A stretch of 41,664 nt of DNA. Source: Actinomycetota bacterium (lineage in GTDB: Bacteria > Actinomycetota > Acidimicrobiia > Acidimicrobiales > WLNW01). A program made the translations under genes and the position numbers. The stretch spans positions 1 to 41,664 of the forward strand of contig JAYUFA010000138.1 in assembly GCA_043738925.1 (NCBI GenBank), in the 5' to 3' direction. Below are positions 17,314 through 35,977 of this stretch, piece after piece. How positions within the stretch are numbered: position 1 is the first letter of the stretch; each line of letters opens with the position of its first letter. Under the pieces are notes generated by a model, which was given only the letters and a program-made list of their open reading frames with translations, ran no database searches and was not told the origin of the DNA.

Positions 17314-17323
17314 TCGATTCAGC

Positions 17324-17362: not shown

Positions 17363-17475
17363 GCACCATCGTCGATAGCTCTCGCCCGCGTGGCTGCCAC
17401 CTATTCGTGCCGGTGCCTCATGGCAATGCCGGCCATCGCACTCGAGCAAAACCATCTCATCCGGGAGTCCACCCG

Positions 17476-17652
17476 ATGCTCGTGCCTTGCTTCTCCTTCT
17501 CTCCGTTCCGTACTCGCTCCGATCGAGGTGCCTCGCTCGTCGAGTACGCCTTGCTCATGGCGCTGATCGCACTGGCCTGTTTCGCGGCTCTGCGCTTCTT
17601 CGGAACCAGCATGAGCAGCCGGTATTCCATCTCCGCCAGCAGTATCGGCTGA
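17476..17652 (+). CDS. flp: divergent Flp family pilin, copy 3 (58 aa)
   Basis: Track ORF trimmed to ATG 17476, with GGGAG upstream. MLVPCFSFSPFRTRSDRG/ASLVEYALLMALIALACFAALRFFGTSMSSRYSISASSIG has the same G/ASLVEY motif but a different leader and tail. Confidence 0.8.
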   Translation: MLVPCFSFSPFRTRSDRGASLVEYALLMALIALACFAALRFFGTSMSSRYSISASSIG

Positions 17653-19684: not shown

Positions 19685-20368
19685 GTGCGCCAGAACGCCT
19701 ATGAGTACGAACCCTTTCTCCTCGTGATCGAAATTGGGCTCACCGGGGGAATCGGCTCTGGCAAATCGACCGTCGCGCGGGCGCTCGTAGCGCGTGGCGC
19801 CACGCTGATCGACGCTGACGCTGTCGTACGAGATGTGCAGGCGCCGGGATCACCTGTTCTCGTGGACATGGTCGAAGCGTTTGGTGACCACATCCTCCAG
19901 GCAGACGGCAGCCTCGATCGCGCCAAGGTCGCGGGTGTCGTGTTCGGTGACGCAGCGATGCTCGCGCGGTTGAACGACATCGTTCATCCTGCGGTAATCA
20001 ATGAGATGACACGGCGCCGTACGTTGCTGGCAGATTCGGACGCGACTGTATTGCTCGATGTACCGCTGCTCATCGAGACAGGTTTCGAGCATCTCGGCGG
20101 CATCATCGTGGTCGATGTTGACCTTGAGACGGCTGTGGAACGTCTTGTCGAGCAGCGCGGTTTCACGGGTGACGACGCGCGAGCGCGAATCGCCATGCAG
20201 ATGAGTCGCGAGGAGCGCGTCGCCCACGCAGACTTCATCGTCGACAATGGTGGCGATCTCGACGCGCTCGACGCCCAGATCGAGGCCTGCTGGGAATGGA
20301 TCATGTCGTTGCCCCGTCCCAAACCGGGAGGCCCCGTGGTGCCCATTCGTCGTAGAGGAGAGAACTGA
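19685..20368 (+). CDS. coaE: dephospho-CoA kinase
   Basis: P-loop IGLTGGIGSGKSTVA, then IDADAVVRDVQAPGSP and HPAV. The start may be GTG 19724 rather than GTG 19685. Confidence 0.9.
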   Translation: MRQNAYEYEPFLLVIEIGLTGGIGSGKSTVARALVARGATLIDADAVVRDVQAPGSPVLVDMVEAFGDHILQADGSLDRAKVAGVVFGDAAMLARLNDIVHPAVINEMTRRRTLLADSDATVLLDVPLLIETGFEHLGGIIVVDVDLETAVERLVEQRGFTGDDARARIAMQMSREERVAHADFIVDNGGDLDALDAQIEACWEWIMSLPRPKPGGPVVPIRRRGEN

Positions 20369-20370
20369 CA

Positions 20371-21405
20371 ATGGCACGCACGCTCATTGATCGCACCGAT
20401 GTTGCCGGCCTGCTCGACCCACGCGAGGTCGGTGGCCTACTGCGCATGAGCAGCTTTGATTGTGTCGTGCCGCTCACGCCCGATGATCAGCGTGCGGTCG
20501 CGTCGATCACGGCGTCGGCCCTGTCGTCGCTCGGTTTGAATCGGTCCGATCGGGTCGTGGTTGCTGCGAGCAGCGACGCTGCTCCGCTCGCGGAGGCCGC
20601 GTCGCTGGTGTCGTCCGCGGTGGCGCACGTCGAACCGCAGGGGCGTGTCCGGCTGCTGCGCACGATGCATTTGCTCGGTTGCACGGTGCTCGCCATGACC
20701 CCGTGCGGTGCCGAGCACCTCGTCGAGCGTGCGCAGGATCTCGGCTACGCGCTCGATCGCTTCGGTATACGTCTGCTCCTCGCGATCGGCGAGATTCCGA
20801 GCGACGGTGCGCTCGATCGCCTCGCGGCGGCGTTTGGCGCCGATGTCGCCGAGGTGCACATCGATCCAGCCACTGGTGCAGCCGTTGCCTCCACGCCGCG
20901 AGGTGAGTGCACGCAGGTGCATGTCGGCGCGCAGTACTCGCTCGAACCCCTTGGCGATACGGGCTGCTATGAGGTCGTCGTTGCGCCGTCGTGGACATCG
21001 GCGCTCTACGACCAACCGGTGCGCACCGGCATGGTGACCACCTCGCTCGACGGGCCGCCCCGGCACACGATCGGCTCGCACGTGCTCGTACGTGGGCGCT
21101 GGGTCCCAATGCATCTGTTCGACGAGGTTCTGCGAGCGCACCCCGAGGTGATCTCCTGGCGCTTGCGGGTCAGCCGACCGGGCTTGCTCGACCACGCAGT
21201 CGTCGAGATCGTGTGTGACAACGCCGAGCACGCTACCGGCGCCGCGGTGCACGATCGGCTCTCGCGATCCGCTGCGTCGATCACCCCCATAGCCTTCGAC
21301 GTCATCCTGCGCGGGCCGGACAGGGGCGAATTCGCGTCGATGCTCGACGACAATCGAGGGCATCACCTGGGTCTCGACCGAGCTGCCTTCACCGGCCTGC
21401 CCTGA
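20371..21405 (+). CDS. hypothetical protein with phenylacetate-CoA ligase (PaaK)/ANL-like layout but degenerate catalytic motifs
   Basis: Starts 2 nt after the coaE stop and has high GC3. The block order resembles PaaK: RVVVAASSDAAPL sits where SSGTTGKP is expected, then GCTVLAMTPCGAEHLVERAQDLG, IRLLLAIGEIPS, YEVVVAPSW, VRTGM and VLVRGRWVPMHLFDEVLRAHPEV. The opposite-strand 356-aa ORF is Arg-rich and was rejected. The CDS itself is confident; the function is not. Confidence 0.6.
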   Translation: MARTLIDRTDVAGLLDPREVGGLLRMSSFDCVVPLTPDDQRAVASITASALSSLGLNRSDRVVVAASSDAAPLAEAASLVSSAVAHVEPQGRVRLLRTMHLLGCTVLAMTPCGAEHLVERAQDLGYALDRFGIRLLLAIGEIPSDGALDRLAAAFGADVAEVHIDPATGAAVASTPRGECTQVHVGAQYSLEPLGDTGCYEVVVAPSWTSALYDQPVRTGMVTTSLDGPPRHTIGSHVLVRGRWVPMHLFDEVLRAHPEVISWRLRVSRPGLLDHAVVEIVCDNAEHATGAAVHDRLSRSAASITPIAFDVILRGPDRGEFASMLDDNRGHHLGLDRAAFTGLP

Positions 21406-21448: not shown

Positions 21449-23527
21449 GTGCCATGGAAGAAGTATTCGCGCCCACCTCTACCGAACGCCGGCGATCGAC
21501 CGTTCAAGGTCGTTTCTGATTTCGCTCCCGCCGGCGATCAGCCCAAGGCCATTGCAGCGCTCGCCGATGGCCTCTGGTGTGGCAATCGATTCCAAACGCT
21601 GTTGGGCATCACCGGATCGGGCAAGAGCGCCACGATCGCGTGGACCATCGAGCAGGTGCAAAAGCCCACGCTGGTGCTCGCACCGAACAAGTCGCTCGCT
21701 GCGCAGCTGGCCAATGAGCTGCGTGAGTTCTTCCCCGAAAATCGCGTCGAGTACTTCGTGTCCTACTACGACTATTACCAACCCGAGGCCTACATGGCCG
21801 CAACCGACACGTACATCGAAAAGGACAGCTCCGTCAACGACGAGATCGACCGCCTTCGCCACGCGGCCACCTCCGCGTTGCTCACGCGGCGCGACACCAT
21901 CATCGTCGCGTCGGTGTCTTGTATCTACGGTCTCGGCTCGCCCATCGAGTACGAGGGTCAGCTGCTGGTGCTGAAGAAGGGCGAGGTGCGCGATCAGCGC
22001 AGCATTCTTCGCCAACTGGTTGACATGCAGTACGAACGCAACGACATGAACCTCGTGCGCGGCAAGTTCCGGGTGCGCGGTGATGTCCTCGAAGTGCATC
22101 CGGCGTACGACCAGCGCGTTGTGCGCATCTCGTTGTTCGGCGACGAGATCGAAGAAATCGTCATGGTTGATCCCCTCACGGGCGAGCGCTTCCAGTCACT
22201 CGATGAGTTGGTCGTGTTCCCGGCCACGCACTACGTGGCGGGGGAGGAGCGCATGCGTTCGGCGATGGTGCGTATCGAGGCCGAGCTGCGCGATCGGCTG
22301 CACCAGTTCGAGTCCGAGGGCAAGCTTCTCGAGGCGCAGCGGTTGCGGATGCGCACGCAATACGACCTGGAGATGATGAGCGAGGTCGGCTTCTGCAACG
22401 GCATCGAGAACTATTCGGCACCCATCGACGGTCGTGAACCCACCGAGCCGCCCTTCACGCTCATCGATTATTTTCCCGACGATTTTCTCGTGGTCCTCGA
22501 TGAATCGCACGTGAGCGTGCCGCAGCTGCACGGCCAATACGAGGGTGATCGCAGCCGCAAGCTCAGCCTCATCGAACACGGCTTTCGACTGCCCTCGGCC
22601 GGCGACAACCGTCCACTGCGGTTCGACGAGTTCATCGATCGCATCAACCAATGCGTGTTCCTCTCGGCCACGCCCGGCCCGTACGAGCTCGAGGTCAGCC
22701 AGCAGATCGTCGAGCAGATCGTTCGGCCCACCGGCCTCATTGATCCCGAGATCGTCGTGCGGCCGACCAAGGGCCAGATCGACGACCTGCTCGAAGAGAT
22801 CACCCAGCGCGTCAGTGCCGAACAGCGGGTGCTCGTCACCACCCTCACGAAGAAAATGGCTGAGGATCTCACCGACTACTTCCTCGAGCTTGGCGTGCGG
22901 GTGCGCTATCTCCACAGCGAGGTCGACACGATCCAGCGCATCGAGATCCTGCGCGACTTGCGCCTCGGCGAGTTCGACGTTCTCGTCGGCATCAACCTTC
23001 TTCGTGAGGGCCTCGATCTGCCCGAGGTGTCACTGGTGGCCATTCTCGATGCCGACAAGGAAGGGTTCCTGCGCAGCCAAACGTCACTGATCCAAACGAT
23101 TGGTCGCGCCGCGCGAAACGTCGATGGCAAGGTCATCATGTACGCGGACAAGGTCACCGACTCCATGCAGCGAGCCATCAACGAGACCATGCGGCGCCGT
23201 GGCGTGCAAGAGGCGTACAACATCGAGCACGGCATCAACCCCCAGACCATTCGCAAGGCGGTAACCGACATTTTGTCGCTGATTCGTCCCAACGAGTCGG
23301 CGCCGATGCCAGGGAAGGATCGTCGTTCGCGCATGCGTGACGATCGGCGCAAGCCCACGGGCACGGTCGCTCTGCACGAATTGCCGAGCGACGAGCTCGA
23401 GCGTCTGATCCGTACGCTTGAGGAGGAAATGCACGAGGCGTCCGCCGACCTTCGGTTCGAATACGCAGCACGTATCCGTGACGAGATCAACGACCTCAAA
23501 CGCGAGCTCAAGGACATCCGCGCCTAA
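21449..23527 (+). CDS. uvrB: excinuclease ABC subunit B
   Basis: [17 protein letters not shown], Walker [17 protein letters not shown] box, helicase motifs and a C-terminal UVR domain ([20 protein letters not shown]). Confidence 0.97.
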
Positions 23528-23577
23528 GCACTCAGCGCGAGTTCTCAAGGACGCTGCCGCAACGCCGATGAGCAAGA

Positions 23578-25389
23578 GTGGCGCTCACCCGAACGCGGAA
23601 CGTTGATCGTGGGACGAGCGCGGTAGCCGAAAAGGCCGTCACCGGCGGTGTTGACGTCAACGCGAATGCGATCGCATCGACTACGGCCGCTGTCGAGGCC
23701 CCTCTCGGCACGCGTCTGAAGCCGATCCCTGCCCTGCTGCTCGTGCTCGCGGTGGTGACGTACCTCGTGTCGGGCCTTTGGCAGGCGGCCCATGACTCGC
23801 CGACGGTCGACGAGGTCATCGACATCAGCTCGGGCACCGCGACGCTCGTGCATCACGACCTCCGGATGAACCCCGAGCACGCGTTCTTGCCGAAGGTTGT
23901 CAGCGCATTTCCTGCGCTGTTGGCTCATCCTGTCGTGCCGCGTGGCGACTCGTGGCGATCGGGTGATTGGTTCGGCTATGCCGACGATTTCGTGCGCGCC
24001 AACCGGGCGGCGGGAACCCTCGACCGCGTCGTATTGTTGGCGCGACTCGCCCCACTGGCGGAGGGCCTCGCTTGCGCGTGGCTGATCCTCCTCTTGGGCC
24101 GACGCATGTACGGCGCGACCGCTGGCGCTGCAGGCGCGGCCATGTGGCTGAGCACACCCGTTGTCGTAGGCCTGTCGCACTTCGCCGGTGTTGACATCGC
24201 GTTCGCACTCGCCACTCTCGTTGTCGCCTACAGATTGCTGATGTTCGTTGACGTTCCCGGTCGCTCGAACGCCGTTGCGCTGGGCGCGTGCTGCGCCGCG
24301 GCGTTGCTCACCCGCCACAGTGCACTCAGCTTGTGGGCCTACGCGACCGTGGCTGTCGTGGCGGTTGTCTGGCGCACCGATCGGCGCGCCGCGTTGCGAT
24401 GTGGCGCAACGGTCGTGCTGGTGGGGTTCGCAGGGGTATGGATCGCGACGCGTGCGATCGCACCCACCGGTCCGAGCCCGGAGTTTGCAGCCCGATCGTC
24501 GGCGCTCGTCGCCGATGCGTCGGCGCGATCGGTGGTCGCGCGAGCATCGCTGGCTGTGCCGTTTCCCACCGAGTATCGCGCCGGTCTTGCCTATCTCGTC
24601 GTGACGTCTGTCGATCGACCGGCGTATCTGTTCGGCCATGCGTGGAACGGCAGTCGCATCTGGTACTTCCCCGGTGTGCTCATGGCGAAGGTGCCGTCTG
24701 GCGTGCTCGCGGCGATGGCACTCACCCCCTTTGGGCTGCTTCGGCTCGGGCGCAGCAAGCGGCGACGCGTCGCCTTCGCTCTGGTCGGTCCGATGTTCGT
24801 GTCGTCGGCCTTTGTCGTTGCGCAGCCGCTGAACCTCGGGGTGCGCTACGTGATGCCGTCATTGGCACTGCTGTTTGTCGGCGTCGGGGCGGTGATCGCC
24901 CGCGCCGTGTCGCGTCCGCAACGAACTTTGGTTGCCGTCGTCGCGTGCGTGCAGGTCGCGGCAATGATCGGCGCGGGCGCGCATGCGTTGGCGTGGACCG
25001 CTCCGCCGTTTCACCCGGCGTACCAGTGGGTGAGTGATTCGAACCTCGACTACGGCCAGGAGAACGGTCGCGTGGAGACCTGGGCACGCCAGCATCCGCA
25101 AGCTTGGGTGACCTTGCTTCGTCCGCGGGGCTACGACATCCCCGCGGGCACTCGTGAGCTGCGTGATGCAGACCCGTCGCAAGTGAGCGGCTGGATAGCG
25201 GTGAGCGCGACCCGCCTGACGGCGCTCGATCGCGGTCAGTTGTCGTGGCTACGTGCCTATTGCCCCGTAGGTGATCTCGGCGGCAGCGTGCTGCTCTACC
25301 GACTGGCGAGCGCTCCCGACACGGCGTCCGGGCCCGCGATGCCAGCCGCGCCTTGCGCGGCGGGGGCCGACTTCTCGACACGCGCCTGA
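23578..25389 (+). CDS. GT-C fold glycosyltransferase, GT39/ArnT/PMT-like (polyprenyl-phosphate-sugar dependent)
   Basis: GTG start 50 nt after uvrB. After TM1 the first loop is HDSPTVDEVIDISSGTATLVHHDLRMNPEHAFLPK. This is the DE...RxNPEHPPLxK signature of ArnT/PMT-like enzymes as I recall it. About 10 further TM segments and a C-terminal soluble domain follow. Confidence 0.8.
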   Translation: MALTRTRNVDRGTSAVAEKAVTGGVDVNANAIASTTAAVEAPLGTRLKPIPALLLVLAVVTYLVSGLWQAAHDSPTVDEVIDISSGTATLVHHDLRMNPEHAFLPKVVSAFPALLAHPVVPRGDSWRSGDWFGYADDFVRANRAAGTLDRVVLLARLAPLAEGLACAWLILLLGRRMYGATAGAAGAAMWLSTPVVVGLSHFAGVDIAFALATLVVAYRLLMFVDVPGRSNAVALGACCAAALLTRHSALSLWAYATVAVVAVVWRTDRRAALRCGATVVLVGFAGVWIATRAIAPTGPSPEFAARSSALVADASARSVVARASLAVPFPTEYRAGLAYLVVTSVDRPAYLFGHAWNGSRIWYFPGVLMAKVPSGVLAAMALTPFGLLRLGRSKRRRVAFALVGPMFVSSAFVVAQPLNLGVRYVMPSLALLFVGVGAVIARAVSRPQRTLVAVVACVQVAAMIGAGAHALAWTAPPFHPAYQWVSDSNLDYGQENGRVETWARQHPQAWVTLLRPRGYDIPAGTRELRDADPSQVSGWIAVSATRLTALDRGQLSWLRAYCPVGDLGGSVLLYRLASAPDTASGPAMPAAPCAAGADFSTRA

Positions 25390-26447
25390 TTTGTTGCGAG
25401 GCACAACACTGCCAGCATCAACAACGGCATCGTCGAGCGGGTCGCGCCGAAGTCGATGCCGACCACGTTGTGATTCATCAACGACACGAACGCGATGCTG
25501 CACACGAGCGCCGGCCAGAGGGGGTGATTTCGGCGCGTGCGCCGCAGCGCAACCGCGGTCACGCCAAGCGCACTGATGGTGGAAAGCATGCCGAGATGAT
25601 TCGTGCCCGCGAGCCAATGGTCGCGAACGGCACCGATCAAGCCGCTGAAGGGTGCGCCGAGCTCGTCGACCTTTTCGTGGGGTGACGCCGGCAGGGTGAT
25701 GCGCAGCCAGAGTGCCCAGCTCCCTGCGGCCGTGATCGGTATTGCGGCGAGCAACGTGTCGGAACGAGTGCGACGCGCGATCGCCCATCCCACGAACACG
25801 ATCACCGCGGTCTCGCGTGTGAGCACGGCGAGACATGCAACCCCGATTGCGAAGCCGGCGCGGCGATGTGCCGCAAGCGCGAGAGCGACAAGCACCAGTG
25901 CCATGGCGAGCGCATCAGAGACGGTCACCCTCAGCGACATGTATGCGCCGGGCAGCAGGGGAAAGACAGCGGCGGGCCATGCGCGGCCACCAAGAGCAGT
26001 GCTCAGCGCACCCGCGCCGATACCACCGAGAAACAGCGCGCCGACACCCACCGCGAAGAAGGCGATGACCAAACTTGCACCGCCACCGCCTTGCGGATGC
26101 ACAACGCGCGCGAGCCACGCGAACAGCGGTCGTTGCCATCGATACGCGGGCCGATCGAGCGACGTTGCGGCCACATCGAGATGCGCCGGGCTCCGCGCCA
26201 TCGCGTAGTACTGCTGACCATCGAGGCCGAGGCCGTGGGGCAATTCGACACCGGGGAAGTCGTGTTGCACCAACGCGGCCGACGGCCCAAGCGCGCCACC
26301 CTGGAGCAAGTTCGCGGGGTGCGCGCCGGTGCGGTTCACATCCCACAGCACGATCACGGCCATCGTGAGCGTGCTCAGCAGCGCAAGGTGCACGATGCGC
26401 CGCCACGGCGTAGCTGCGTGCATTTGGTTGGCACGTTCTCGGGTCAC
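25296..26447 (-). CDS. polytopic membrane protein, probable surface-glycopolymer biogenesis factor (family uncertain)
   Basis: Track ORF trimmed. GTG 26447 overlaps the stop of the upstream Wzy_C gene (GTGA); ATG 26423 is an alternative. About 9-10 TM segments. An extracytoplasmic loop reads GLGLDGQQYYAMARSPAHLD...RPAYRWQRPLF, reminiscent of the DGxxYxxIAxxP motif of glycopolymer-formation membrane proteins (from memory, uncertain). Confidence 0.6.
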   Translation of the reverse strand: MTRERANQMHAATPWRRIVHLALLSTLTMAVIVLWDVNRTGAHPANLLQGGALGPSAALVQHDFPGVELPHGLGLDGQQYYAMARSPAHLDVAATSLDRPAYRWQRPLFAWLARVVHPQGGGGASLVIAFFAVGVGALFLGGIGAGALSTALGGRAWPAAVFPLLPGAYMSLRVTVSDALAMALVLVALALAAHRRAGFAIGVACLAVLTRETAVIVFVGWAIARRTRSDTLLAAIPITAAGSWALWLRITLPASPHEKVDELGAPFSGLIGAVRDHWLAGTNHLGMLSTISALGVTAVALRRTRRNHPLWPALVCSIAFVSLMNHNVVGIDFGATRSTMPLLMLAVLCLATNQARVEKSAPAAQGAAGIAGPDAVSGALASR

Positions 26448-27757
26448 GTGACCGCCCCTATGGTGGTCTTTCGTCCGGAGATCGCGGGAGGGCCGAGCTG
26501 CGGGTGTTCCAGAAGGCCCAACCAGATTGCGCTGAGCGCAATGCCGGTCGGGAAGACATAGGCGTACGAGTCGAGCATCACAAACGGCACGAGCAGCCAC
26601 GCGCCGCCCAACACGAGTACCCCGCGACGCGCAATCCGCTTCGCATACCAGAGACAGGCTGCGGCCACGACACACGCGCCAAATACGCCGAGCTCGGCTG
26701 CGGCTTGCACAAGCAGGTTGTGCGACGGCAGGAGCTCACCGTCGGGTGGCCCCGGCTCGGCAAGAGCGAGCACGTAGCGCGCCGGGCCCACGCCGGTGAG
26801 CGGATGCTCGGTGGCGAGCTCCAGGCCGTGGCGGGCGAGCGTGACACGGCCTCGGTCCGCGCCGCTGCCGGCGCTCTGCTGAGCGCGGGTCGACCATCCG
26901 CTCGAGAACAGGATTGTGGTCGCGGCGAGCCCGAAGAGCAGCGAACCGACGAGTAGTCGCGTGGTGTAATCGGCTTTGTCGCGACGCGAGAAACACCACA
27001 CGACCGCCGCGGGAATCAACGCGAGCAGCATGGCTCGCGAGAACGTGACGGCGAGACCTGCGCCGATCAACGCGAGTGCAGCCATCCACAGCCGCAGGTT
27101 GAACGGTCGATCCGCGCGGCCCGCGACCAGTGCCGCATACGCGGCGAGCAACAGAAATACCGTGAGGTGGTACGGGTGCGACAAGCCTCCACGACCAGCG
27201 TGCGTGGCCCCGAAAGCAAACAGAGGCCCAGCATGATCAATCGGGTAAAGCGAAAACCCATGACCAGCAACGACTTGCGCCATTGCCAGGATCGCCTCGG
27301 CGACCCCGCACACGGTCAGCGCGACGCACATCTTGCGGAGGTTTCGTGTCGACAAGCGGCGAATGACATCGACGAGGGCAACACACGCAAACAGTCGCAC
27401 CGCGTATTCGATGCCACGCCACGACGGGTGCACGGCCAACGAGATCGCAAACACGGCGACGAACGCGCTCGCGATGACGACGCCGGCAGATGCGCGTGGA
27501 CGCGGATCAGCACGTGCCTTCGGTGCGACCTCGCGCAGCCAGACGATGACCAGTGCGCTCAATGCGACATCGAACGGTGAGAGCGTGACACGTCGATTGA
27601 AGTCGTCAGCGGCGCCGGGTGCGAACCACACGACCCAGCCCACGGCCAGCGGGATCATCACGATCGTTGCCACCAACAGCTGCGTGGCGCGGTCGGACGC
27701 GCGCGCCCGCTCGGGCGCAGGCGCGCGATCGTGGGGCGGCGTTTGCGTGGCGGTCAT
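26444..27757 (-). CDS. O-antigen ligase family (Wzy_C domain) membrane protein: ligase, polymerase or O-oligosaccharyltransferase
   Basis: Track ORF trimmed to ATG 27757. Multi-TM protein with a Wzy_C-like core (LWMAALALIGAGLAVTFSRAMLLALIPAAV), a large loop (SGWSTRAQQSAG...HPLTGVGPARY) and HNLLVQAAAELGVFG. Confidence 0.8.
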   Translation of the reverse strand: MTATQTPPHDRAPAPERARASDRATQLLVATIVMIPLAVGWVVWFAPGAADDFNRRVTLSPFDVALSALVIVWLREVAPKARADPRPRASAGVVIASAFVAVFAISLAVHPSWRGIEYAVRLFACVALVDVIRRLSTRNLRKMCVALTVCGVAEAILAMAQVVAGHGFSLYPIDHAGPLFAFGATHAGRGGLSHPYHLTVFLLLAAYAALVAGRADRPFNLRLWMAALALIGAGLAVTFSRAMLLALIPAAVVWCFSRRDKADYTTRLLVGSLLFGLAATTILFSSGWSTRAQQSAGSGADRGRVTLARHGLELATEHPLTGVGPARYVLALAEPGPPDGELLPSHNLLVQAAAELGVFGACVVAAACLWYAKRIARRGVLVLGGAWLLVPFVMLDSYAYVFPTGIALSAIWLGLLEHPQLGPPAISGRKTTIGAVT

Positions 27758-27803
27758 CTCTACAAACCATCGACATCGCGACCGTTGACCTGAGGCGTCT
27801 GAG

Positions 27804-27817
27804 GCGGTCGCGACCGC
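27804..27817. promoter_or_regulatory. perfect 14-bp palindrome in divergent promoter region (candidate operator)
   Basis: GCGGTCGCGACCGC is its own reverse complement. It overlaps a direct repeat of TGAGGCG at 27791-27797 and 27800-27806. It lies in the 104-nt gap between the divergently transcribed Wzy_C and GT-C-like genes. Confidence 0.3.
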
Positions 27818-27861
27818 GGCTCGCCGCTCAACCGCTGCGCGAGCAAGCCGATAGGTCCACG

Positions 27862-29631
27862 ATGAGCACGCAGGTGAGCGAGCGGCCGGTCGTGGGCGAT
27901 GACGGTCCCGAATCACCAGCCCTTCTGGCGTTCTTCAAGCAGTGGTCGTCATTGTGGATACATGTCGGTGCACTGGCTATCGCTCTGTTCTTGGTATTCG
28001 CCGTGGTGCGGCCGGGTCAACCATCGATTTCCGACGAGGGTGCGGCGCTCGCGCAGATCGACGCGCTCAACTCCGGACGCGGATGGCTGATGCCGCATCC
28101 GTTTCCGGCCTTGACCACGGTCGGCGCGGCCTTTCCGATTGACTTGTCGCTACGACGGCCGGGCACTGACGACTACGCGCCACTGGCGAAGCATCCGCTG
28201 TACTCCATGCTGCTGGTGGGCCCGTACCGCGAAGGTGGTGTGCCCGCGACAATCGCGGTCTCGGTGTTTGGCACGCTGGCAGCTGCGCTTGCGGCGGCGT
28301 TGATCGCGCGTCGGATCGATCGTCGCGCGGACCGTGTTGCGTTGTGGCTGACGGGGGCCGCAACGCCGCTGTTCTACGACGGGTATCTCGTGTTAGCGCA
28401 TTCCTTGGCGGCGGCCTTGTTGGGCTTCGCGGTGCTGATGCTCGTCTCGCGACGCCGGCGCGGTCGCAGCATCGCCGTGCTCGGCGGCCTGCTTTGCCTG
28501 CTCGCTGCACAGCTGCTGCGGAACGAGGCCGTGCTGTTCGGCGGCGCGCTTTGCATCGCGTTCGCCTTCGCCGGCCTTCGGCGTGGATCACGACGCGATA
28601 CTTGGATCGGTCTCGCTGTTGCCTGCACAACGGTGTTCGGCTATCGCCTTGACGCGCTTTGGCAGGGCCACACGGTCGGCGGCGCATCGCAAACGTTCTC
28701 GATAGCGCGCCACGGCTCGTTCGTGGTCGAACGATGGCACGGTCTGGTCAACGCGTTTCTTCGCCTCCCAGACATTGCGCCCGCGCCGCGGTTGTTGCTG
28801 ATGGCCACGTTGGCGTCGGCCGCCGCCGCAGCGCGCTGTGCGCGGCGACCCGCCCGGCACGCGTACGTGGGACGGCTCGCCGTCAGCGCGGCCCTGTGCG
28901 CGACGGCGGCGTTCGTGCTCGCACCACACACGCTCGTTCCCGCGATGGTGCTCACGGCACCGGTGATGTTCGCCGGCCTGCTCCTCATCGATCGTTCGTT
29001 CTGGGCCGAACCGGCTGCGGTGGTCGCCGCGGTGACCGCGACACTCTTCGCGATCGCAGTCGCTGCGACCCAGTACGGCGATGCAGGGAGCGCGTGGGGC
29101 GGGCGGTACTTCGCGGTCGGCTTGCCGATGGTGACTCCGCTCGCGGCGGTTGGACTCTCGCGTGCCTACGCGTCGCTCCCCGTTGCAACGCGCCGATCGG
29201 CGCTGGTCGGCACGATCGGTGTGTCTTTCGCGCTGGCGGCGATGGCCTCGTCGTCACTTCTTGCCGACCATCGGTTCGCCGCCGCGACACAGCAAGCTGT
29301 CGCGGTAGCAACGGCAGGTGCCGCGCCAGGCGACGGTGACCCGCGTCCTGTGGTCATTGCCGGAGACCGCGCGTTCGGGCGCCTGTTGTGGCCCCTCGTG
29401 CGTGATCAACGATGGGTGACCGACGAGGGCAATCTCGCACCGGTGGCTTCCGGTATGCGCAACGCCGGCATCCGGATGTTGACGGTGATCACCCCACGGC
29501 CGAAGCAGGCGATCGACCAACTTGCTCCGTGGTACGTAGCCACCAACGGCGTAACCCGCGTGAGTGTCGACGTGCCCTTCGGTCGTCGCGTCACGCTCGA
29601 CGTTGGTGTGGTCACCTTCACAGCGAGATAG
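27862..29631 (+). CDS. large polytopic membrane protein, GT-C-like putative glycosyltransferase
   Basis: Track ORF trimmed to ATG 27862. TM1 is followed by a loop with an acidic pair (PSISDEGAALAQIDALNSGRGWLMPHPFP...LAKHPLYSML). At least 10 TM segments follow, then a C-terminal soluble domain of about 100 aa. It ends 47 nt before uvrA. Confidence 0.6.
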   Translation: MSTQVSERPVVGDDGPESPALLAFFKQWSSLWIHVGALAIALFLVFAVVRPGQPSISDEGAALAQIDALNSGRGWLMPHPFPALTTVGAAFPIDLSLRRPGTDDYAPLAKHPLYSMLLVGPYREGGVPATIAVSVFGTLAAALAAALIARRIDRRADRVALWLTGAATPLFYDGYLVLAHSLAAALLGFAVLMLVSRRRRGRSIAVLGGLLCLLAAQLLRNEAVLFGGALCIAFAFAGLRRGSRRDTWIGLAVACTTVFGYRLDALWQGHTVGGASQTFSIARHGSFVVERWHGLVNAFLRLPDIAPAPRLLLMATLASAAAAARCARRPARHAYVGRLAVSAALCATAAFVLAPHTLVPAMVLTAPVMFAGLLLIDRSFWAEPAAVVAAVTATLFAIAVAATQYGDAGSAWGGRYFAVGLPMVTPLAAVGLSRAYASLPVATRRSALVGTIGVSFALAAMASSSLLADHRFAAATQQAVAVATAGAAPGDGDPRPVVIAGDRAFGRLLWPLVRDQRWVTDEGNLAPVASGMRNAGIRMLTVITPRPKQAIDQLAPWYVATNGVTRVSVDVPFGRRVTLDVGVVTFTAR

Positions 29632-29638
29632 GCGCTAC

Positions 29639-29652
29639 CAAACACGTGTTCG
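29639..29652 (+). promoter_or_regulatory. LexA/Cheo-box-like palindrome upstream of uvrA
   Basis: CAAAC-ACGT-GTTCG has one core mismatch to GAAC-N4-GTTC (consensus CGAAC-N4-GTTCG). It lies 27-40 nt upstream of the uvrA GTG. TAGGCT (29667-29672) ends 6 nt before the start codon. Confidence 0.4.
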
Positions 29653-29678
29653 TGGGCTTCGGGGCCTAGGCTCGCGCC

Positions 29679-32591
29679 GTGGCCGAGCAGCTCATCATCC
29701 GCGGTGCCCGCGAGCACAACCTCCGCAACGTCGATCTGACCCTCCCGCGCGATCGCCTTATCGTGTTCACTGGCTTGTCCGGTTCGGGCAAATCATCGCT
29801 TGCGTTCGACACGATCTATGCGGAAGGCCAACGTCGCTACGTCGAGTCGCTGTCGGCATATGCGCGCCAGTTTCTCGGCCAGATGGACAAGCCCGATGTC
29901 GACTTCATCGAGGGCCTGTCGCCCGCGATCTCGATCGACCAGAAGTCGGCGTCACGGAACCCGCGTTCCACCGTCGGCACCATCACCGAGGTCTACGACT
30001 ACCTGCGGTTGTTGTACGCGCGCATCGGCATCCCGCACGATCCCGACACCGGCGAGGAGCTCATTCGCCAGACACCGCAGCAGATCGTCGATCGCATATT
30101 GACGCTGCCAGAAGGCACGCGGTTCCAAGTGCTTGCACCCGTGGTGCGGGGTCGCAAGGGCACATACGACACGTTGCTGTCCGAACTCGCATCAAAAGGC
30201 TTCGCCCGCGCCATCGTCGACGGCGAACTCATCGAGTTGGGCGCGTCGATGCAGCTCGACCTCGGCCGCTACGACATGCATACCATCACGGTTGTCGTTG
30301 ATCGCCTCGTGCTGCGCGATGGCCTCGAACGCCGCCTCACCGAGTCGATGGAAACCGCACTTGGGCTCGCCGACGGTGTCGCCGAAATCGAGATCCTGCC
30401 GGGCAAGGGTGCCGTCGGCGATGTCGAGCCGCAAACGATTATCTTCTCGCAGCATTTGGCGCGCCCGAGCGACGGGAAGAGTTTCGAGGAGTTGGCTCCA
30501 CGTAACTTCTCGTTCAACTCGCCGTATGGCGCGTGCGAGCACTGCGCGGGTCTCGGCACGGTGTTCGAGGTCGACCCCGAGCTGGTCGTACCCAACCCCG
30601 AGCTATCGATCGCCGAGGGCGCGATCGCTCCCTGGTCAAGTGGCCACAGCCAGTACTTCCATCGACTGCTCGACTCGGTCTGCGAAGAACTCGAGGTGAG
30701 CAACGCCACGGCATGGGATGAGTTGTCGAAGCAGACCCAAAAGGTGTTCCTGTACGGCTTGAAAAAGGATCGCGTCGAGGTCCGCTATCGCAACCGATAC
30801 GGACGCACGCGGTCCTACAACGCCAAATACGAGGGCATCATCCCGTACCTCAAGCGTCGTCACTCCGAAGCCGAGAGCGACTCGATGCGTGAGCAGATCG
30901 AGGGGTACATGCGCGAGGTTGCGTGCCCCGACTGTGGGGGCGCGCGGCTCAAGCCGTTGTCGCTCGCAGTAACGATCGGGCGCTACAACATCTCCGAAGT
31001 GTGCGCGATGCCCATCGGCGAGGCAGCCAAGGTGTTGGCCTCGCTCGTGTTCACCGAGCGCGAGGCCATCATCGCCGAGCAGGTGTTGAAGGAGATCAGC
31101 GCACGGCTCGGCTTCCTGCTCGATGTCGGTCTCGACTACCTCACGTTGTCGCGCAACGCAGGCACGCTTGCGGGCGGCGAGGCGCAACGCATTCGTCTCG
31201 CGTCGCAAATCGGCAGCGGTCTCGTCGGTGTGCTCTACGTGCTCGACGAACCGTCGATCGGTTTGCACCAACGCGACAACGCGCGTCTCATCGAGACACT
31301 GCTTCGGCTTCGCGACCTTGGCAACACCGTGCTCGTCGTCGAGCACGACGAGGAGACCATCAAGGTGGCCGACTACGTCGTCGACATCGGCCCCGGCGCC
31401 GGCGAGCACGGCGGGTACATCGTGCATGCCGGTTCCGTAGCGCAGCTCCTCAAGAACAAGGAGTCGGTGACCGGACAGTACCTGTCGGGCCGCCGCTCGA
31501 TACCCGTGCCCGAGAAGCGCCGCACGCCGGGCGAACAACGCCTCGTTGTGCGCGGTGCGCGCGAGAACAACCTGCGCAACATCGATGTCGAGATTCCGCT
31601 GGGCTGCTTCGTCGCCGTCACCGGCGTATCGGGTTCGGGCAAGAGCACACTCATCAACGAGATCCTTTACCACTCGCTGATGCAGAAGATCTACAGATCG
31701 AAGACGCCTCCCGGGTTACACAAGAGTGTTGAAGGCGTCGACCTGCTCGACAAAGTGATCAACATCGACCAGTCGCCGATCGGTCGTACGCCGCGCAGCA
31801 ACCCCGCCACGTACACCGGTGTATTCGACAACATCCGCAAGCTGTTCGCCGACACCACCGAGGCCAAGGTGCGCGGGTATCTGCCGGGTCGATTCAGCTT
31901 CAACGTCAAGGGTGGCCGCTGCGAGGCGTGTCAGGGCGACGGCACGATCAAGATCGAGATGCACTTCCTGCCCGACGTGTATGTGCCGTGCGAGGTGTGC
32001 AAGGGCAAGCGGTACAACCGCGACACTCTCGACATCTTGTTCAAGGGCAAGAACATCAGCGAGGTACTCGACCTGTCGTGCGAGGAGGCAGCGGAGTTTT
32101 TCCAGAACCAGCCGAACATCGCCCGCCACATGATCACGCTTGTCGACGTCGGCCTCGGTTACGTGCGGCTCGGCCAAAGTGCGCCCACGCTGTCGGGCGG
32201 CGAGGCGCAGCGCGTCAAACTCTCCACCGAGCTGGCCAAGCGGTCGACCGGCCACACCATCTACATCCTCGACGAGCCCACCACCGGGCTGCACTTCGAG
32301 GATGTACGCAAGCTGCTCACCGTGCTGACGCGCTTGGTCGACCAAGGCAATTCGGTGGTTGTGATCGAGCACAATCTCGACGTGATCAAAACTGCGGACT
32401 GGCTCATCGATCTCGGGCCCGAGGGTGGCTCCGGTGGTGGCTTGGTGGTTTGTGAAGGTCCGCCCGAGGTCGTCGCTGCGCACGCGACGAGCCACACCGG
32501 CCGGTTTCTCAAGCCCCTGCTGCCAGCGCTCGCGGCGGCCGCGCAGGTCGTGGAGACGGCACCAGGGAAAGGTCGTAAGAAGCGGGCGTGA
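29679..32591 (+). CDS. uvrA: excinuclease ABC subunit A
   Basis: Two ABC ATPase modules ([44 protein letters not shown] twice), zinc-finger Cys pairs ([18 protein letters not shown]...CEVCKG). 970 aa. Confidence 0.97.
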
Positions 32592-32669: not shown

Positions 32670-33860
32670 ATGCGCGTCGCAATCGACGCACGGGTCGAGA
32701 ACGGCCGTGCCGGTGGAGTGCAGCAAGGTCTGATCGCGATAGCGACGGCGTTGTGTGCCGTCGACGCCACGTTGCGGCCAGAGCGAACGTTCGTCACCAT
32801 GACGGGGCTCGACGGCTGGCTGCGAGACGCAGGTGGAAGCGATGCGGCGTTCCTCGACCTGCCAGTTGGCGGTAGCCGGCGTATCGCCCGCCGTTTGCGT
32901 GGCCACCCGGCCGGCCGACGAGCGGTCGCCGCGGCGGTCGATATACGCAATCGACGAGCGCGACCGCGAGCTTCGTCAGGCACGTTCGAGTCGACCGGTG
33001 CGGACGTGGTGCTCTTTGCAACCCAACGGGCCGAGCTGTGCCGAACGCCGTTCGTGTACCTGCCGCACGATCTACAGCATCGTCACCTGCCGGAGTTCTT
33101 TCGACCCGCGGAGCGCCATCGTCGCGAGATCGAGTACCGCGCCTATTGCGAAGCGGCGGCGGTGGTGGTGGTGTTCACCGATTGGGCGGCGCTCGACCTG
33201 GCCGAGGCGTACGCAGTCGACCCGGCTCGTATCGTCGTAATCCCGCCTTGGGCGCCGAGCGTTCGGCCCGAGCCCTCGGCCGAAACGCCACGGTTGACGG
33301 TCCGCCCGTTCGCGCTCTTCCCCGGCCAGGCGTGGCCACACAAGAACCACCGCACGTTGTTCGAGGCGCTCGCGATGCTCCGTTCCGACGGCATCGACAT
33401 TCCGCTCGTGTGTCCCGGCGCGACTGGCGACGCGACACAACGTCTTCGTCGTCATGCGGATGCGCTCGGTGTCGGCGATCTCGTCACGTTTCCGGGCTTC
33501 GTCGACGCGGCCACGATGGACTCGCTCTGGAGCGGCGCACGGTGCCTCGTGTTCCCCTCGTTGTTCGAGGGCTGGGGCTATCCGGTGGTCGAGGCGATGG
33601 ATCGCGATGTTCCCGTCGCGTGCTCGATCGGTGTGATCCTCGACGCCGTATCGGGTGACGCCGCCCTGCGGTTCGCGCCGCGTGATGCCGAATCGATGGC
33701 CGGATCGCTCCGGACCTTGTGGTCCGATGAGATCGTTCGCGACTTGTGTGTTGAACGTGGTCGGGCGCACATCGCGCAGTTCTCCTGGCTGACGATGGGA
33801 GACCGCTACTTGCGAGCGTTCGAGCAGGCAATCGGCGCCGACTCGACGGTATTGCGATGA
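32670..33860 (+). CDS. glycosyltransferase family 4 (GT-B, retaining)
   Basis: C-terminal GT1/GT4 signature FPGFVDAATMDSLWSGARCLVFPSLFEGWGYPVVEAMDRDVPVACS (EX7E-like). Confidence 0.88.
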   Translation: MRVAIDARVENGRAGGVQQGLIAIATALCAVDATLRPERTFVTMTGLDGWLRDAGGSDAAFLDLPVGGSRRIARRLRGHPAGRRAVAAAVDIRNRRARPRASSGTFESTGADVVLFATQRAELCRTPFVYLPHDLQHRHLPEFFRPAERHRREIEYRAYCEAAAVVVVFTDWAALDLAEAYAVDPARIVVIPPWAPSVRPEPSAETPRLTVRPFALFPGQAWPHKNHRTLFEALAMLRSDGIDIPLVCPGATGDATQRLRRHADALGVGDLVTFPGFVDAATMDSLWSGARCLVFPSLFEGWGYPVVEAMDRDVPVACSIGVILDAVSGDAALRFAPRDAESMAGSLRTLWSDEIVRDLCVERGRAHIAQFSWLTMGDRYLRAFEQAIGADSTVLR

Positions 33861-35799: not shown

Positions 35800-35977
35800 G
35801 TGACTCCCAGCTCGGTTGATCCATGAACTATCGGCGGCGAGGGTCGCGAACTGAACCGGACTGTCGAGAACGCTCGTCCTGCGTGTGACTTCGCGTCGTC
35901 GCACCAAACAGATCAGAACCTTGCCCTCGGGGCCGATAGGAGTGCATGGGTTCATCACGCGCGCTTGGCGGCACGCC

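Follow-up and report, generated by a model that had tools for sequence, protein, structure and literature searches.

The window, by which we mean the whole stretch of 41,664 nucleotides analyzed, holds between uvrB and uvrA (positions 23578–29631) exactly four long polytopic membrane-protein ORFs, designated P1–P4, with 6–11 hydrophobic segments per protein (Kyte–Doolittle). ORF inspection revealed no further credible gene in this interval, in keeping with the sequence-only reading that nothing but multi-transmembrane proteins is encoded there. uvrA forms a divider, with the membrane-enzyme block on one side and a cytoplasmic glycan-assembly block on the other. The features up to and including uvrA are:

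21449–23527, plus strand: uvrB, left border of the locus (Pfam UvrB_inter, UvrB, Helicase_C and UVR)
23578–25389, plus strand: P1, 603 aa, PMT_2/ArnT-like GT-C glycosyltransferase; start codon uncertain
25296–26447, minus strand: P2, 383 aa, compact GT-C-superfamily membrane protein, anchor gene of the conserved locus
26444–27757, minus strand: P3, 437 aa, Wzy_C-domain membrane protein; longest ORF extends to 27916
27859–29631, plus strand: P4, 590 aa, predicted GT-C protein with an ArnT-like fold and a C-terminal alpha/beta domain; longest ORF from 27619
29679–32591, plus strand: uvrA (Pfam UvrA_DNA-bind and UvrA_inter)

The spacings and orientations all read as first described. The GTG of P1 lies 50 nt after the uvrB stop on the same strand, the P4 stop lies 47 nt before the uvrA GTG, and neither spacer contains a terminator-like site. 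The P2 GTG and the P3 stop share the sequence GTGA (26447–26444, read directly), although this coupling hinges on the true start of P2, because the database gene call P0001 (375 aa) takes an ATG eight codons downstream. P3 and P4 are divergent with ~101 nt between them, while P1 and P2 are convergent and overlap by 94 nt at their 3′ ends. With dozens of homologues for each protein at 30–90% identity, and with confident models for P2 and P4, P1–P4 are real genes rather than chance ORFs of high-GC DNA.

P1 matched Pfam PMT_2 with an E value of 1e-4 (23 bits; gathering score of 26.1 not reached), and no significant PF02366 (PMT) match was obtained for the window protein. Among 58 P1 homologues, precomputed annotation places PF13231 on 52 and, in addition, PF02366 on 10; one homologue is labelled ‘glycosyltransferase family 39 protein’ by NCBI. 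These matches uphold the initial assignment of P1 as an ArnT-like GT-C enzyme. Homologue comparison showed D78, E79, D94, H101, C562 and C593 to be invariant and E100 nearly so; the conserved C-terminal domain is probably extracytoplasmic.

P2 and P4 are annotated as ‘hypothetical’ in databases, and neither window protein has a Pfam match. The closest NCBIfam relative of P2 is the AZOBR_p60025 family (E 1.7e-29, 102.7 bits; cutoff of 150 not reached), and weak Pfam matches among members of the P2 family include GT87, ALG10, DUF2079 and EpsG, the last comprising proposed polymerase-type proteins, not glycosyltransferases. A search of 1.84 billion representatives returned 3418 relatives of P2 at E ≤ 1e-3 and 214 at E ≤ 1e-30. 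P4 resembles the NCBIfam LA_3751/LA_3752 putative glycosyltransferases (E 1.9e-10, 40.2 bits; cutoff of 200 not reached). Structure prediction and Foldseek searches, which had been proposed as a check, were run for these two proteins, and long helices predominate in both AlphaFold2 models. For P2 (pLDDT 88.7), 17 of the 18 best PDB matches are GT-C enzymes (ALG3, ArnT, STT3, ALG12, PimE, Pmt4 and PglB), all of them weak, with E values of 0.01–1 and TM scores of 0.30–0.46. The P4 model (pLDDT 92.0, pTM 0.91) matched ArnT (5f15) best, with an E value of 1.4e-6 and a TM score of ~0.5, followed by AglB, STT3, AftA, ALG12 and ALG9, with EmbA/B/C also among the matches. The models thus point to a GT-C fold for P2, with weak structural matches, and to a GT-C enzyme with an ArnT-like fold for P4, the latter as anticipated. 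The sequence-only reading had named no family for two of the four proteins; that statement no longer holds, as both P2 and P4 now have a predicted GT-C fold and weak, sub-cutoff NCBIfam relatives.

Invariant positions are D76, D98, D178 and E212 in P2, and D59, W76, H112 and W413-G-G-R416 in P4, where E60 is nearly invariant. The loops quoted initially are all present and kept in homologues (D78-E79 and P99-E100-H101 in P1, D76-G77…Y81-A82 in P2, D59-E60 in P4), and P1, P2 and P4 each carry invariant acidic residues immediately after their first transmembrane helix. Alignment of the P1 and P4 families by hhalign (probability 89.5%, E 2e-6) indicates that they are remote homologues. The interval is predicted to encode three GT-C-fold glycosyltransferases from three mutually distant families: PMT_2/ArnT-like (P1), AZOBR_p60025-like (P2) and LA_3751-resembling (P4).

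P3 carries the Wzy_C domain claimed for it, with a Pfam E value of 5e-16 and 59.3 bits, exceeding the gathering score of 31.7. It contains an H-N-x9-G-x2-G motif, and an alignment of 17 sequences shows no variation at R241, R304, H346 and E355. This His and Arg signature of ligases and polymerases suggests an enzyme that acts as a glycan polymerase, a ligase or an O-oligosaccharyltransferase.

Beyond uvrA lie six further genes:

32670–33860, plus strand: GT4 cytoplasmic glycosyltransferase (Pfam Glycos_transf_1, E 1.4e-20, plus Glyco_transf_4)
33857–34879, plus strand: GT2 glycosyltransferase (Pfam Glycos_transf_2, E 1.9e-15) with 2–3 C-terminal transmembrane helices
34876–35991, minus strand: X3, soluble protein of 371 aa, family not recognised
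35885–37309, plus strand: PGT, large polyprenyl-phosphate glycosylphosphotransferase of WbaP/WcaJ type (Pfam Bac_transf, E 1.8e-56)
37306–38661, plus strand: X5, candidate Wzx-like flippase with 12 hydrophobic segments
38661–39659, plus strand: FkbM-family methyltransferase (Pfam Methyltransf_21, E 3.1e-9; fkbM_fam 54.4 bits, cutoff 37.7)

PGT, which scored 277.7 bits against NCBIfam EPS_sugtrans (cutoff 295.6), is the likely initiating enzyme. The hydrophobic segments of GT2 span residues 255–324, and no specific GtrB or DPMS match was found for it in NCBIfam or the PDB; it would serve either lipid-linked glycan extension or polyprenyl-phosphate-sugar donor synthesis. X3 had no match in Pfam, NCBIfam or the PDB, and its homologues (40–51% identity) adjoin GT4 and GT2 in loci L004, L008 and L010, where homologues of the window GT4 also occur. 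X5 has no Pfam match and reached 26.9 bits (E 2.3e-6) against NCBIfam WZX_like, whose cutoff is 300. The likely FkbM start is the ATG at 38661, in a TGATG overlap with the X5 stop, within a longest ORF from 38385. Among the genes of the window, none was recognised as encoding a polyprenyl-phosphate-sugar synthase, a GtrA-type flippase, a chain-length regulator or an LCP ligase.

The neighbourhood was compared across 35 Acidimicrobiia loci with a full-length P2 homologue. uvrA or uvrB lies within reach in 30 of them, and the remaining five lie on contigs no longer than 5.5 kb; uvrB of related loci is 74–89% identical to that of the window. Informative P2 loci usually hold P1, P3 and/or P4, with PGT and GT2 just beyond uvrA, and P4-anchored contexts, collected independently, also place that gene between uvrB and uvrA. 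Among the 22 ‘complete’ loci spanning both uvrA and uvrB, P2 is present in 18, P1 and P4 in 12 each, P3 in nine, PGT (adjoining uvrA or P2) in 14 and GT2 (adjoining PGT) in ten. Gene combinations vary: P1, P2 and P3 (six loci), P2 and P4 (four), all four (three), P4 only (three) or P2 only (two). P3 is restricted to loci that have P1, and P4 often occupies the place that P3 has elsewhere. Because the loci share ancestry, they are not independent observations.

The four genes do co-occur in other genomes: in the 66%-identical relative GCA_041447055.1 and apparently in L001 in the window order, and in L017 and L019 with P4 beyond uvrA. Envelope-glycan genes are interleaved with a housekeeping backbone, polA-rpsA-coaE-uvrB-uvrA-nadA-uvrC, in a set that is modular rather than fixed and in which P2 is nearly universal. 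The proposed link to the downstream cluster stands for PGT and GT2 and fails for the Wzx-like protein and FkbM: no homologue of either was found in related loci, and these two form the variable part of the cluster.

We estimate a probability of roughly 60% that P1–P4 are of enzyme types which assemble cell-envelope glycans and that they belong to an ancient locus shared across the class Acidimicrobiia. As had been supposed, none of them can be assigned to a characterised pathway. From fold and family, they would act on the outer face of the membrane with lipid-linked donors; we infer their topology, donors and acceptors, and one shared product for all parts. PGT would load a sugar 1-phosphate onto polyprenyl phosphate, and the lipid-linked unit would be lengthened in the cytoplasm by GT4, GT2 and X3, with methylation by FkbM. 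The Wzx-like protein could then move the unit across the membrane, where P3 would polymerise it or transfer it en bloc. P1, P2 and P4 may add more sugars from polyprenyl-monophosphate-sugar donors, using the acidic residues of the first external loop (D78/E79, D76 and D59/E60, respectively).

The earlier suggestion that all parts form one system is supported by conserved synteny but only in part, since P2 is able to stand alone: in L012 and L039 it is the sole gene separating uvrB from uvrA, and PGT is absent within 10 kb. As L009 likewise has P1 and P2 without PGT, the membrane genes need not rely on the downstream cluster. It is therefore conceivable, though clearly less probable, that independent modules merely share an address, the interval being an inherited site at which the conserved backbone tolerates insertions. 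P2, by itself or together with P1, would then glycosylate an acceptor made elsewhere (for instance a protein, lipoglycan or wall polymer), P3 along with PGT, GT2, GT4 and Wzx would form a separate Wzy-type exopolysaccharide pathway, and P4 would represent a third route. The shifting combinations of P1–P4 agree with this, as do X5 and FkbM being confined to the window, unrelated genes in the interval (an ABC transporter and MarR in L037, CorA and a glyoxalase in L038, a hydrolase in GCA_041447055) and gene relics in L039 and L042; genes can stay neighbours on a deeply conserved backbone without being functionally coupled. Against it, P2 still directly adjoins PGT where it has moved past uvrA (L024, L026, L030 and L032), P3 is always accompanied by P1, a P2–P1 fusion protein is known (P0152, 983 aa), and most loci have PGT and GT2 after uvrA, frequently at 3–4-nt junctions.

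A more specific product is suggested by L040 and L041, in which coaE and uvrB are separated by genes for DprE1, DprE2 and a decaprenyl-phosphate phosphoribosyltransferase (301.8 bits in NCBIfam, cutoff 207 exceeded). Two P4 paralogs, uvrA, PGT and GT2 come directly after these donor genes and uvrB. In L041, all genes from uvrB to GT2 are co-directional, with gaps or overlaps of 3–4 nt at the P4–P4, uvrA–PGT and PGT–GT2 junctions. P4-type enzymes could accordingly be pentofuranosyl (arabinofuranosyl-type) transferases using a decaprenyl-phospho-pentofuranose donor, and the locus would make a wall or lipoglycan polymer resembling arabinan, comparable with the arabinogalactan and LAM of mycobacteria or with the products of GT136 three-component systems. 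That GT-C enzymes can add pentofuranose outside the cytoplasm is an established concept (PMC11127046), and AftA and EmbA/B/C are among the structural matches of P4. We consider this unlikely, however, as the donor-pathway genes occur in just two of ~42 loci and are absent from the window (on a contig of ~42.6 kb, part of the genome) and from all P2-anchored loci, and ArnT rather than an arabinosyltransferase tops the P4 matches.

Protein O-glycosylation appears more doubtful still. P3 would here be a PglL/PilO-type O-oligosaccharyltransferase moving a PGT-primed oligosaccharide to surface proteins, and P1 a PMT-like protein glycosyltransferase. The Wzy_C domain is common to WaaL ligases and PglL/PilO O-oligosaccharyltransferases, a monoderm is not known to have a lipid A-core acceptor, and the GT39 name found among P1 homologues is that of the protein O-mannosyltransferase family. 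One candidate acceptor would be the Ser-rich C-termini, such as NASSKFNSVGSSIA, of three Flp pilins encoded ~10 kb upstream (16744–17652), and a Tad/Flp locus with HK and RR genes adjoins coaE-uvrB in several relatives. However, neither a PglL-specific domain nor, for P1, a significant PMT match was detected, present data do not tell a polymerase from an oligosaccharyltransferase, the conserved backbone accounts for the proximity of Tad, and the Flp link is pure speculation.

Coupling to nucleotide excision repair, for example by co-transcription with uvrB/uvrA as a stress-response unit through which UV or desiccation would jointly induce repair and a protective surface glycan, is very improbable despite the short terminator-free spacers, the 3–7-nt junctions between same-strand uvrA and glycan genes in relatives and an interleaving kept across the class, because P2 and P3 lie on the opposite strand, the interval admits unrelated genes, and uvrB and uvrA are also near each other, on a conserved backbone, in other Actinomycetota (Rv1633/Rv1638 in M. 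tuberculosis and Krad_2942/Krad_2940 in Kineococcus; PMC2587704).

Inherited gene order, perhaps together with co-transcription, is the most likely reason for the site around uvrB/uvrA; a role in DNA repair is probably not involved. Read as a class-wide envelope-glycan locus of the Acidimicrobiia, it would be an uncharacterised, conserved instance of an already familiar type of pathway rather than a new kind of system.

The genes between uvrB and uvrA belong to a conserved, probable envelope-glycan locus that includes two unclassified, predicted GT-C families. The locus is not a new type of system; its components are those of a pathway for envelope polysaccharides, and their genomic setting is unusual but apparently inherited. 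The gene map of the window, which has a G+C content of ~65% and whose nearest relatives are all Acidimicrobiia/Acidimicrobiales genomes, was drawn from an ORF listing and from Pfam and NCBIfam scans.

Genes of the window (coordinates, strand, product)
2103-4850, +, polA
5736-7412, +, rpsA
7.6-15.8 kb, +, Tad/Flp pilus cluster
15899-16570, +, response regulator
16744-17652, +, three Flp pilin genes
17717-19561, -, histidine kinase
19685-20368, +, coaE
20371-21405, +, conserved protein of no known family
21449-23527, +, uvrB
23578-25389, +, P1, PMT_2/ArnT-like membrane protein
25296-26447, -, P2, compact 383-aa membrane protein
26444-27757, -, P3, Wzy_C protein
27859-29631, +, P4, 590-aa membrane protein with an ArnT-like fold
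29679-32591, +, uvrA
32670-33860, +, GT4
33857-34879, +, GT2
34876-35991, -, X3, soluble, no known family
35885-37309, +, polyprenyl-phosphate glycosylphosphotransferase (PGT)
37306-38661, +, X5, ~12 transmembrane (TM) segments, weakly Wzx-like
about 38661-39659, +, FkbM methyltransferase
39652-40857, -, nadA
40742 to window end, +, uvrC

The sequence-only reading had described a 6-kb interval of nothing but polytopic proteins, and four such proteins with no further credible gene were found there. The spacers of 50 nt (uvrB-P1) and 47 nt (P4-uvrA) and the divergent arrangement of P3 and P4 were likewise as described. The GTGA overlap of the P3 stop with the P2 start is also present, but the translational coupling read from it depends on the choice of P2 start codon, because the public gene call of the identical P2 protein begins 8 codons further in (375 aa). 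Antisense ORFs, including 23545-24639 (-), were rejected as genes, as the translation is Arg-rich and non-protein-like, while P1-P4 have homologues and confident models. Recent horizontal acquisition of the block was also rejected, given a GC fraction of 0.63-0.68 against 0.61-0.69 window-wide and synteny conserved across the class. A scan of 23300-29900 found no promoter-like sites and six terminator-like sites, all within coding regions and not above shuffled expectation; it was uninformative on operon structure, apart from the uvrB-P1 and P4-uvrA spacers being free of terminator-like sites. P1 (+) and P2 (-) are convergent and their 3' coding ends share 94 nt (25296-25389); overlaps of 49-91 nt occur in relatives (L002, L003, L007, L013, L022, L023 and GCA_041447055.1; L numbers denote related Acidimicrobiia loci). 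C593 and S600 of P1, within the overlap, are invariant, and the P2 tail there (residues 358-383) is modeled at pLDDT <50. The overlap could be an antisense coupling or merely an extended ORF.

P4 gave no Pfam match and reached 40.2 bits, over profile positions 95-222 of 460 only, against NCBIfam NF047440 (LA_3751/LA_3752; cutoff 200). The AlphaFold2 model (pLDDT 92.0, pTM 0.91; 34-sequence alignment) found ArnT (5f15) as its best PDB match in Foldseek (E 1.4e-6, TM 0.48-0.52), with further matches to AglB, STT3, AftA, ALG12 and ALG9; all 21 of the 21 best matches were GT-C enzymes. These matches predict that P4 is a GT-C enzyme, with an alpha/beta domain at its C-terminus. Its earlier description as GT-C-like is thereby borne out at the level of fold; by the NCBIfam cutoff it is not a member of the LA_3751/LA_3752 family. 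D59 is invariant and E60 nearly so among 34 sequences; the pair lies directly after TM1, past model helix 20-50, in a loop that would face outward.

P2 scored 102.7 bits (E 1.7e-29, profile positions 7-216 of 232) against NCBIfam NF046093 (AZOBR_p60025, "cell surface glycopolymer formation"); since the cutoff is 150, it is a relative and not a member of that family by the NCBI criterion. In Foldseek its AlphaFold2 model (pLDDT 88.7) matched GT-C enzymes in 17 of the 18 best cases, including ALG3, ArnT, STT3, ALG12 and PimE, at the weak level of E 0.01-1 and TM 0.30-0.46. Individual family members gave weak matches to GT87, ALG10 and DUF2079, and also to EpsG, the GT87 match being present in only 3 of 29 members (best E 2.2e-6). 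We assign P2 to the GT-C superfamily with moderate confidence, its modeled fold being borderline. All 29 aligned sequences keep both D76, in GLDGQQYY, and D98, which lie between TM1 (15-40) and the next TM helix, in what would be the first external loop. A search of 1.84 billion representatives with the P2 profile returned 3418 relatives at E<=1e-3 and 214 at E<=1e-30, so the family is sizeable, and it is unstudied.

PDB sequence searches returned nothing for the P1 and P2 family profiles or the P3 and P4 single sequences, and only chance-level matches (E 0.12-1) for the P1 single sequence and the P4 family profile, the latter finding no glycosyltransferase; this leaves the AlphaFold2 models as the basis for assigning the folds. 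Comparison with hhalign gave a remote link between the P1 and P4 families (probability 89.5%), a marginal one between P2 and P4 (47%) and, profile to profile, none between P2 and P1 (9%). By these profiles, P1, P2 and P4 are best regarded as three separate families and not recent paralogs. Neither P2 nor P4 has a Pfam family, their homologues are called "hypothetical protein" in public records, and no relevant literature was found on the AZOBR_p60025 and LA_3751 families. To our knowledge, both the P2 and the P4 families are absent from CAZy.

P1 reached 23.0 bits against Pfam PMT_2 (PF13231; gathering score 26.1), a domain precomputed on 52 of 58 P1 homologues (23-82% identity); PF02366 is listed on 10 of the 58, and one homologue is a GT39-family protein by automatic NCBI annotation. 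P1 itself does not fit a strict definition of GT39 protein O-mannosyltransferases, as neither PF02366 nor PMT_4TMC matched it at E<=0.1 in Pfam. Residues D78, E79, D94 and H101 are invariant and E100 nearly so; in the C-terminal domain, invariant C562 and C593 suggest an extracytoplasmic disulfide. The family is not confined to the uvrB-uvrA interval, as a distant homologue (P0166, 34% identity) lies elsewhere, adjoining a DUF2079 protein. P3 is by domain profile a clear Wzy_C protein (PF04932; 59.3 bits, gathering score 31.7, profile positions 1-147 of 149), with R241, R304, H346, E355 and G357 invariant in 17 sequences. Its segment SHNLLVQAAAELGVFG fits the motif H-[NSQ]-x9-G-x2-[GTY] in the form H-N-x9-G-x2-G; this His motif and conserved loop arginines are features of WaaL.

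Downstream of uvrA, the PGT gave matches to Bac_transf (E 1.8e-56) and EPS_sugtrans (277.7 bits), which place a predicted initiating polyprenyl-phosphate glycosylphosphotransferase in the locus. GT2 gave only generic GT2 matches in NCBIfam and the PDB, with no specific GtrB or DPMS match, so that a GtrB-/DPMS-type donor synthase is not supported, though its C-terminal transmembrane helices would fit such an enzyme. X3 (371 aa) has no family in Pfam, NCBIfam or the PDB, and may be an unclassified glycosyltransferase or glycan-modifying enzyme. X3 homologues with 40-51% identity lie beside GT4 and GT2 in L004, L008 and L010. X5 scored 26.9 bits against WZX_like (cutoff 300) and had no Pfam match. 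Its stop overlaps the likely FkbM start as TGATG (38659-38663, within 38640-38680), which suggests translational coupling of two strain-specific genes. Pfam and NCBIfam scans identified no donor synthase, small flippase, chain-length regulator or LCP ligase in the window.

The sequence-only reading had proposed that the four genes, with the downstream cluster, could form one dispersed glycan system, a proposal that failure of the four families to co-occur in other genomes would count against. A profile scan with the P2 alignment found 36 loci, all in Acidimicrobiia and including two cultured Aquihabitans strains, and related loci were annotated by tblastn and iterated HMM searches. One of these, L010 from Aquihabitans daechungensis DSM 27986, has the order uvrB-P1-P2-P3-uvrA-PGT-GT2-GT4-X3. 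The families do co-occur elsewhere: a full-length P2 homologue was present in 35 loci, 30 of which have uvrA or uvrB in the fetched DNA, the remaining five being contigs of <=5.5 kb. P4-anchored contexts, found independently, likewise lie between uvrB and uvrA. Among the 22 loci spanning both uvr genes, P2 was found in 18, P1 in 12, P4 in 12, P3 in 9, the PGT in 14 and GT2 in 10. All four genes occur in the window's order in GCA_041447055.1 and apparently in L001, and the set is also complete in L017 and L019, where P4 has shifted to a place between uvrA and the PGT.

One system is only partly supported, and a fixed set does not hold, since P2 stands alone in L012 and L039, the latter keeping a 128-aa relic of P1. 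The P1-P4 set is modular: P3 occurs in no related locus without P1, P4 often holds the place of P3 between P2 and uvrA (L011, L013, L018 and L021), and in L024, L026, L030 and L032 P2 has moved past uvrA and adjoins the PGT. No related locus yielded a counterpart of the Wzx-like or the FkbM gene of the window, and both belong to the part of the cluster that varies at strain level.

Several loci show further rearrangement. The relic in L039 (11150-11599) matches the P1 C-terminus and lies between P2 and uvrB, short P2-like remnants follow uvrA in L042 (11094-11489), and P1, P2, P4 and uvrA are all fragmented in L035; these point to decaying genes within the interval, the L035 fragments being probably the product of assembly frameshifts. 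GT-C genes also appear to duplicate repeatedly at the locus, with second, divergent P2-like paralogs in L005 (2384-5239), L025 (2384-5428), L008 (12705-14132), L026 (16740-17837) and L037 (11224-12336), and tandem P4 paralogs in L030, L040 and L041. Two database proteins combine P1 and P2: P0152 (983 aa, from a JGI contig of 4016 nt) fuses a P2-like half (29-391) to a P1-like half (430-962), and the shorter P0059 (646 aa) joins parts of both. They may be a Rosetta-stone hint of P1 and P2 acting together, or an artefact of gene calling or frameshift.

The three excision-repair genes uvrB, uvrA and uvrC start within 20 kb of one another on a backbone of polA-rpsA-coaE-uvrB...uvrA...nadA-uvrC (2103-41662), and the order is kept in L009, L012 and L039. 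We take the portion from polA to uvrA to resemble the M. tuberculosis order Rv1629-Rv1638. In that species uvrB is Rv1633 and uvrA is Rv1638, so that Rv1635c lies between them by locus-tag order (PMC2587704). Rv1635c is the GT-C mannosyltransferase responsible for the first mannose in the ManLAM cap (PMC3090144). Kineococcus has uvrA and uvrB at a distance of two locus tags (PMC2587704), and in relatives of the window the interval also holds unrelated genes (an ABC transporter with MarR, CorA and a hydrolase). The placement is most simply read as inherited gene order, the conserved backbone being one that accepts insertions between uvrB and uvrA. Co-transcription is plausible given the tight co-directional packing; nothing in the analysis indicated a DNA-repair role for the glycan genes.

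Upstream of uvrB, the response regulator and histidine kinase genes flank the three Flp/Fap pilin genes (+; 16744-16929, 17128-17313 and 17407-17652), of which the first two are near-identical tandem copies. Their C-termini are Ser-rich (NASSKFNSVGSSIA/LA and TSMSSRYSISASSIG) and could be O-glycosylation sites. The block of Tad, histidine kinase and response regulator genes adjoins coaE-uvrB in several relatives too. The 344-aa protein encoded between coaE and uvrB (20371-21405, +) has no significant Pfam or NCBIfam match and is kept in place, with 83% identity in L003 and as a 340-aa gene in GCA_041447055.1. A 519-aa ORF ending the Tad pilus cluster (14257-15816, +) has no Pfam or NCBIfam match.

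The locus was compared with known systems. Like the mycobacterial and corynebacterial AG, LM and LAM enzymes (EmbA/B/C, AftA-D, MptA-D, PimE and Rv1635c), it places several polytopic GT-Cs in one actinobacterial genome, and those enzymes act outside the membrane with polyprenyl-phosphate-sugar donors, as P1, P2 and P4 would. The structural matches of P4 and P2 include AftA, Emb and PimE among other GT-Cs, Rv1635c shares the position between uvrB and uvrA, a likeness of position, and DprE1, UbiA and DprE2 stand beside uvrB in two relatives. However, P1, P2 and P4 fall below every threshold of GT87, GT53, GT85 and GT89-type models, and arabinogalactan/LAM assembly uses neither the putative WbaP-type PGT initiation nor the Wzy_C protein seen here. 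Those two components recall the Wzx/Wzy pathways of O antigen, capsule and exopolysaccharide, as a WbaP/WcaJ-type PGT, GT2, GT4, a Wzx-like protein and a Wzy_C protein lie within 13 kb. Unlike such pathways, the window has no chain-length regulator (PCP/Wzz), export component or LCP ligase among the genes scanned, carries three extra GT-C enzymes and is split by uvrA; the Wzx match is also very weak, and the Wzx-like and FkbM genes are not kept in relatives.

In three-component GtrA/GtrB/GtrC systems, a GT-C adds sugars from a polyprenyl-monophosphate-sugar to an already exported glycan, as proposed here. GT136 systems are three-component extracytoplasmic glycosylation systems in which a GT-C adds pentofuranoses (Kelly et al. 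2024, PMC11127046). The C-terminal helices of GT2 are a GtrB-like feature, and L040 and L041 share with GT136 systems a UbiA-type polyprenyl-phosphate phosphoribosyltransferase; the window differs in having no identifiable GtrB- or UbiA-type synthase, GtrA or MATE flippase. ArnT (GT83) is the best structural match of P4, and P1 resembles PMT/ArnT in its PMT_2 match and first-loop Asp-Glu pair, but the ArnT substrate is absent because the host is a monoderm without lipid A, and P1 departs from GT39/PMT in lacking a significant PF02366 or any reported PMT_4TMC match. P3 resembles WaaL ligases and PglL/PilO in its Wzy_C score above gathering, its His motif and its invariant Arg, but a monoderm has no lipid A-core acceptor, and PDB sequence search found no solved relative.

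By formal definitions, P3 belongs to Wzy_C, P4 has the GT-C fold and the PGT is a member of its class; PMT_2 for P1 and the GT-C fold for P2 are borderline; and the locus falls outside strict GT39, the two NCBIfam families and a complete Wzy or Gtr system. Overall it would work like a hybrid of a Wzx/Wzy-type half and a multi-GT-C outer-face half of the kind known from Mycobacteriales and Gtr/GT136-type systems.

The components are consistent with a polyprenol-dependent pathway for envelope glycans; the analysis shows the genes, their folds, the conserved residues and the synteny, and we infer topology, donors, acceptors and the unity of the pathway. The PGT would start synthesis on polyprenyl phosphate, and GT4, GT2, X3 and FkbM would elaborate the lipid-linked unit in the cytoplasm. 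The Wzx-like protein would flip the unit across the membrane, where P3 would polymerize it or transfer it en bloc. On the outside, P1, P2 and P4 would add further sugars, presumably taken from polyprenyl-monophosphate-sugar donors.

D-Arabinofuranose-type chemistry from a decaprenyl-phosphate donor is thought typical of Mycobacteriales. In two contigs only, L040 (1774-5168) and L041 (982-4011), the stretch from coaE to uvrB carries genes for DprE1, a UbiA-family decaprenyl-phosphate phosphoribosyltransferase (301.8 bits, NCBIfam cutoff 207) and DprE2. A pair of P4 paralogs comes next, then uvrA, the PGT and GT2, all co-directional, with uvrA-PGT, PGT-GT2 and P4-P4 junctions of 3-4 nt in L041. 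By sequence, the trio resembles a donor pathway of the decaprenyl-phosphoarabinose type, here outside Mycobacteriales. By analogy with mycobacterial arabinan and GT136 systems (PMC11127046), it hints at possible pentofuranose transfer by P4-type enzymes in some lineages. No relevant literature on decaprenyl in Acidimicrobiia was found.

The most far-reaching reading joins several claims: that the locus makes a class-specific, ancestral envelope glycopolymer or lipoglycan of Acidimicrobiia, with its outer-face enzymes inherited together with uvrB and uvrA; that P2 and P4 are the founding members of two new GT-C families; that some lineages use D-arabinofuranose-type sugars from a decaprenyl-phosphate donor; that Rv1635c is a remnant of the same arrangement; and that repair and glycan genes are co-expressed. 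We consider this combination unlikely to hold in full, with a probability of roughly 15%.

Acidimicrobiia are abundant freshwater, marine, soil and wastewater actinobacteria, and we know of hardly any biochemical study of their cell envelope. The locus offers a concrete, conserved candidate set for a class-wide surface glycan, comprising three GT-C families, two of them annotated as hypothetical only, a Wzy_C protein, a PGT and GT2. For annotation, P2- and P4-type "hypothetical proteins" can be labeled as GT-C-fold membrane glycosyltransferase candidates, and Aquihabitans daechungensis DSM 27986 and Aquihabitans sp. G128 are cultured carriers for testing. The P4 paralogs beside a decaprenyl-phosphoarabinose-type pathway in two relatives hint that arabinan-like chemistry may reach beyond Mycobacteriales.
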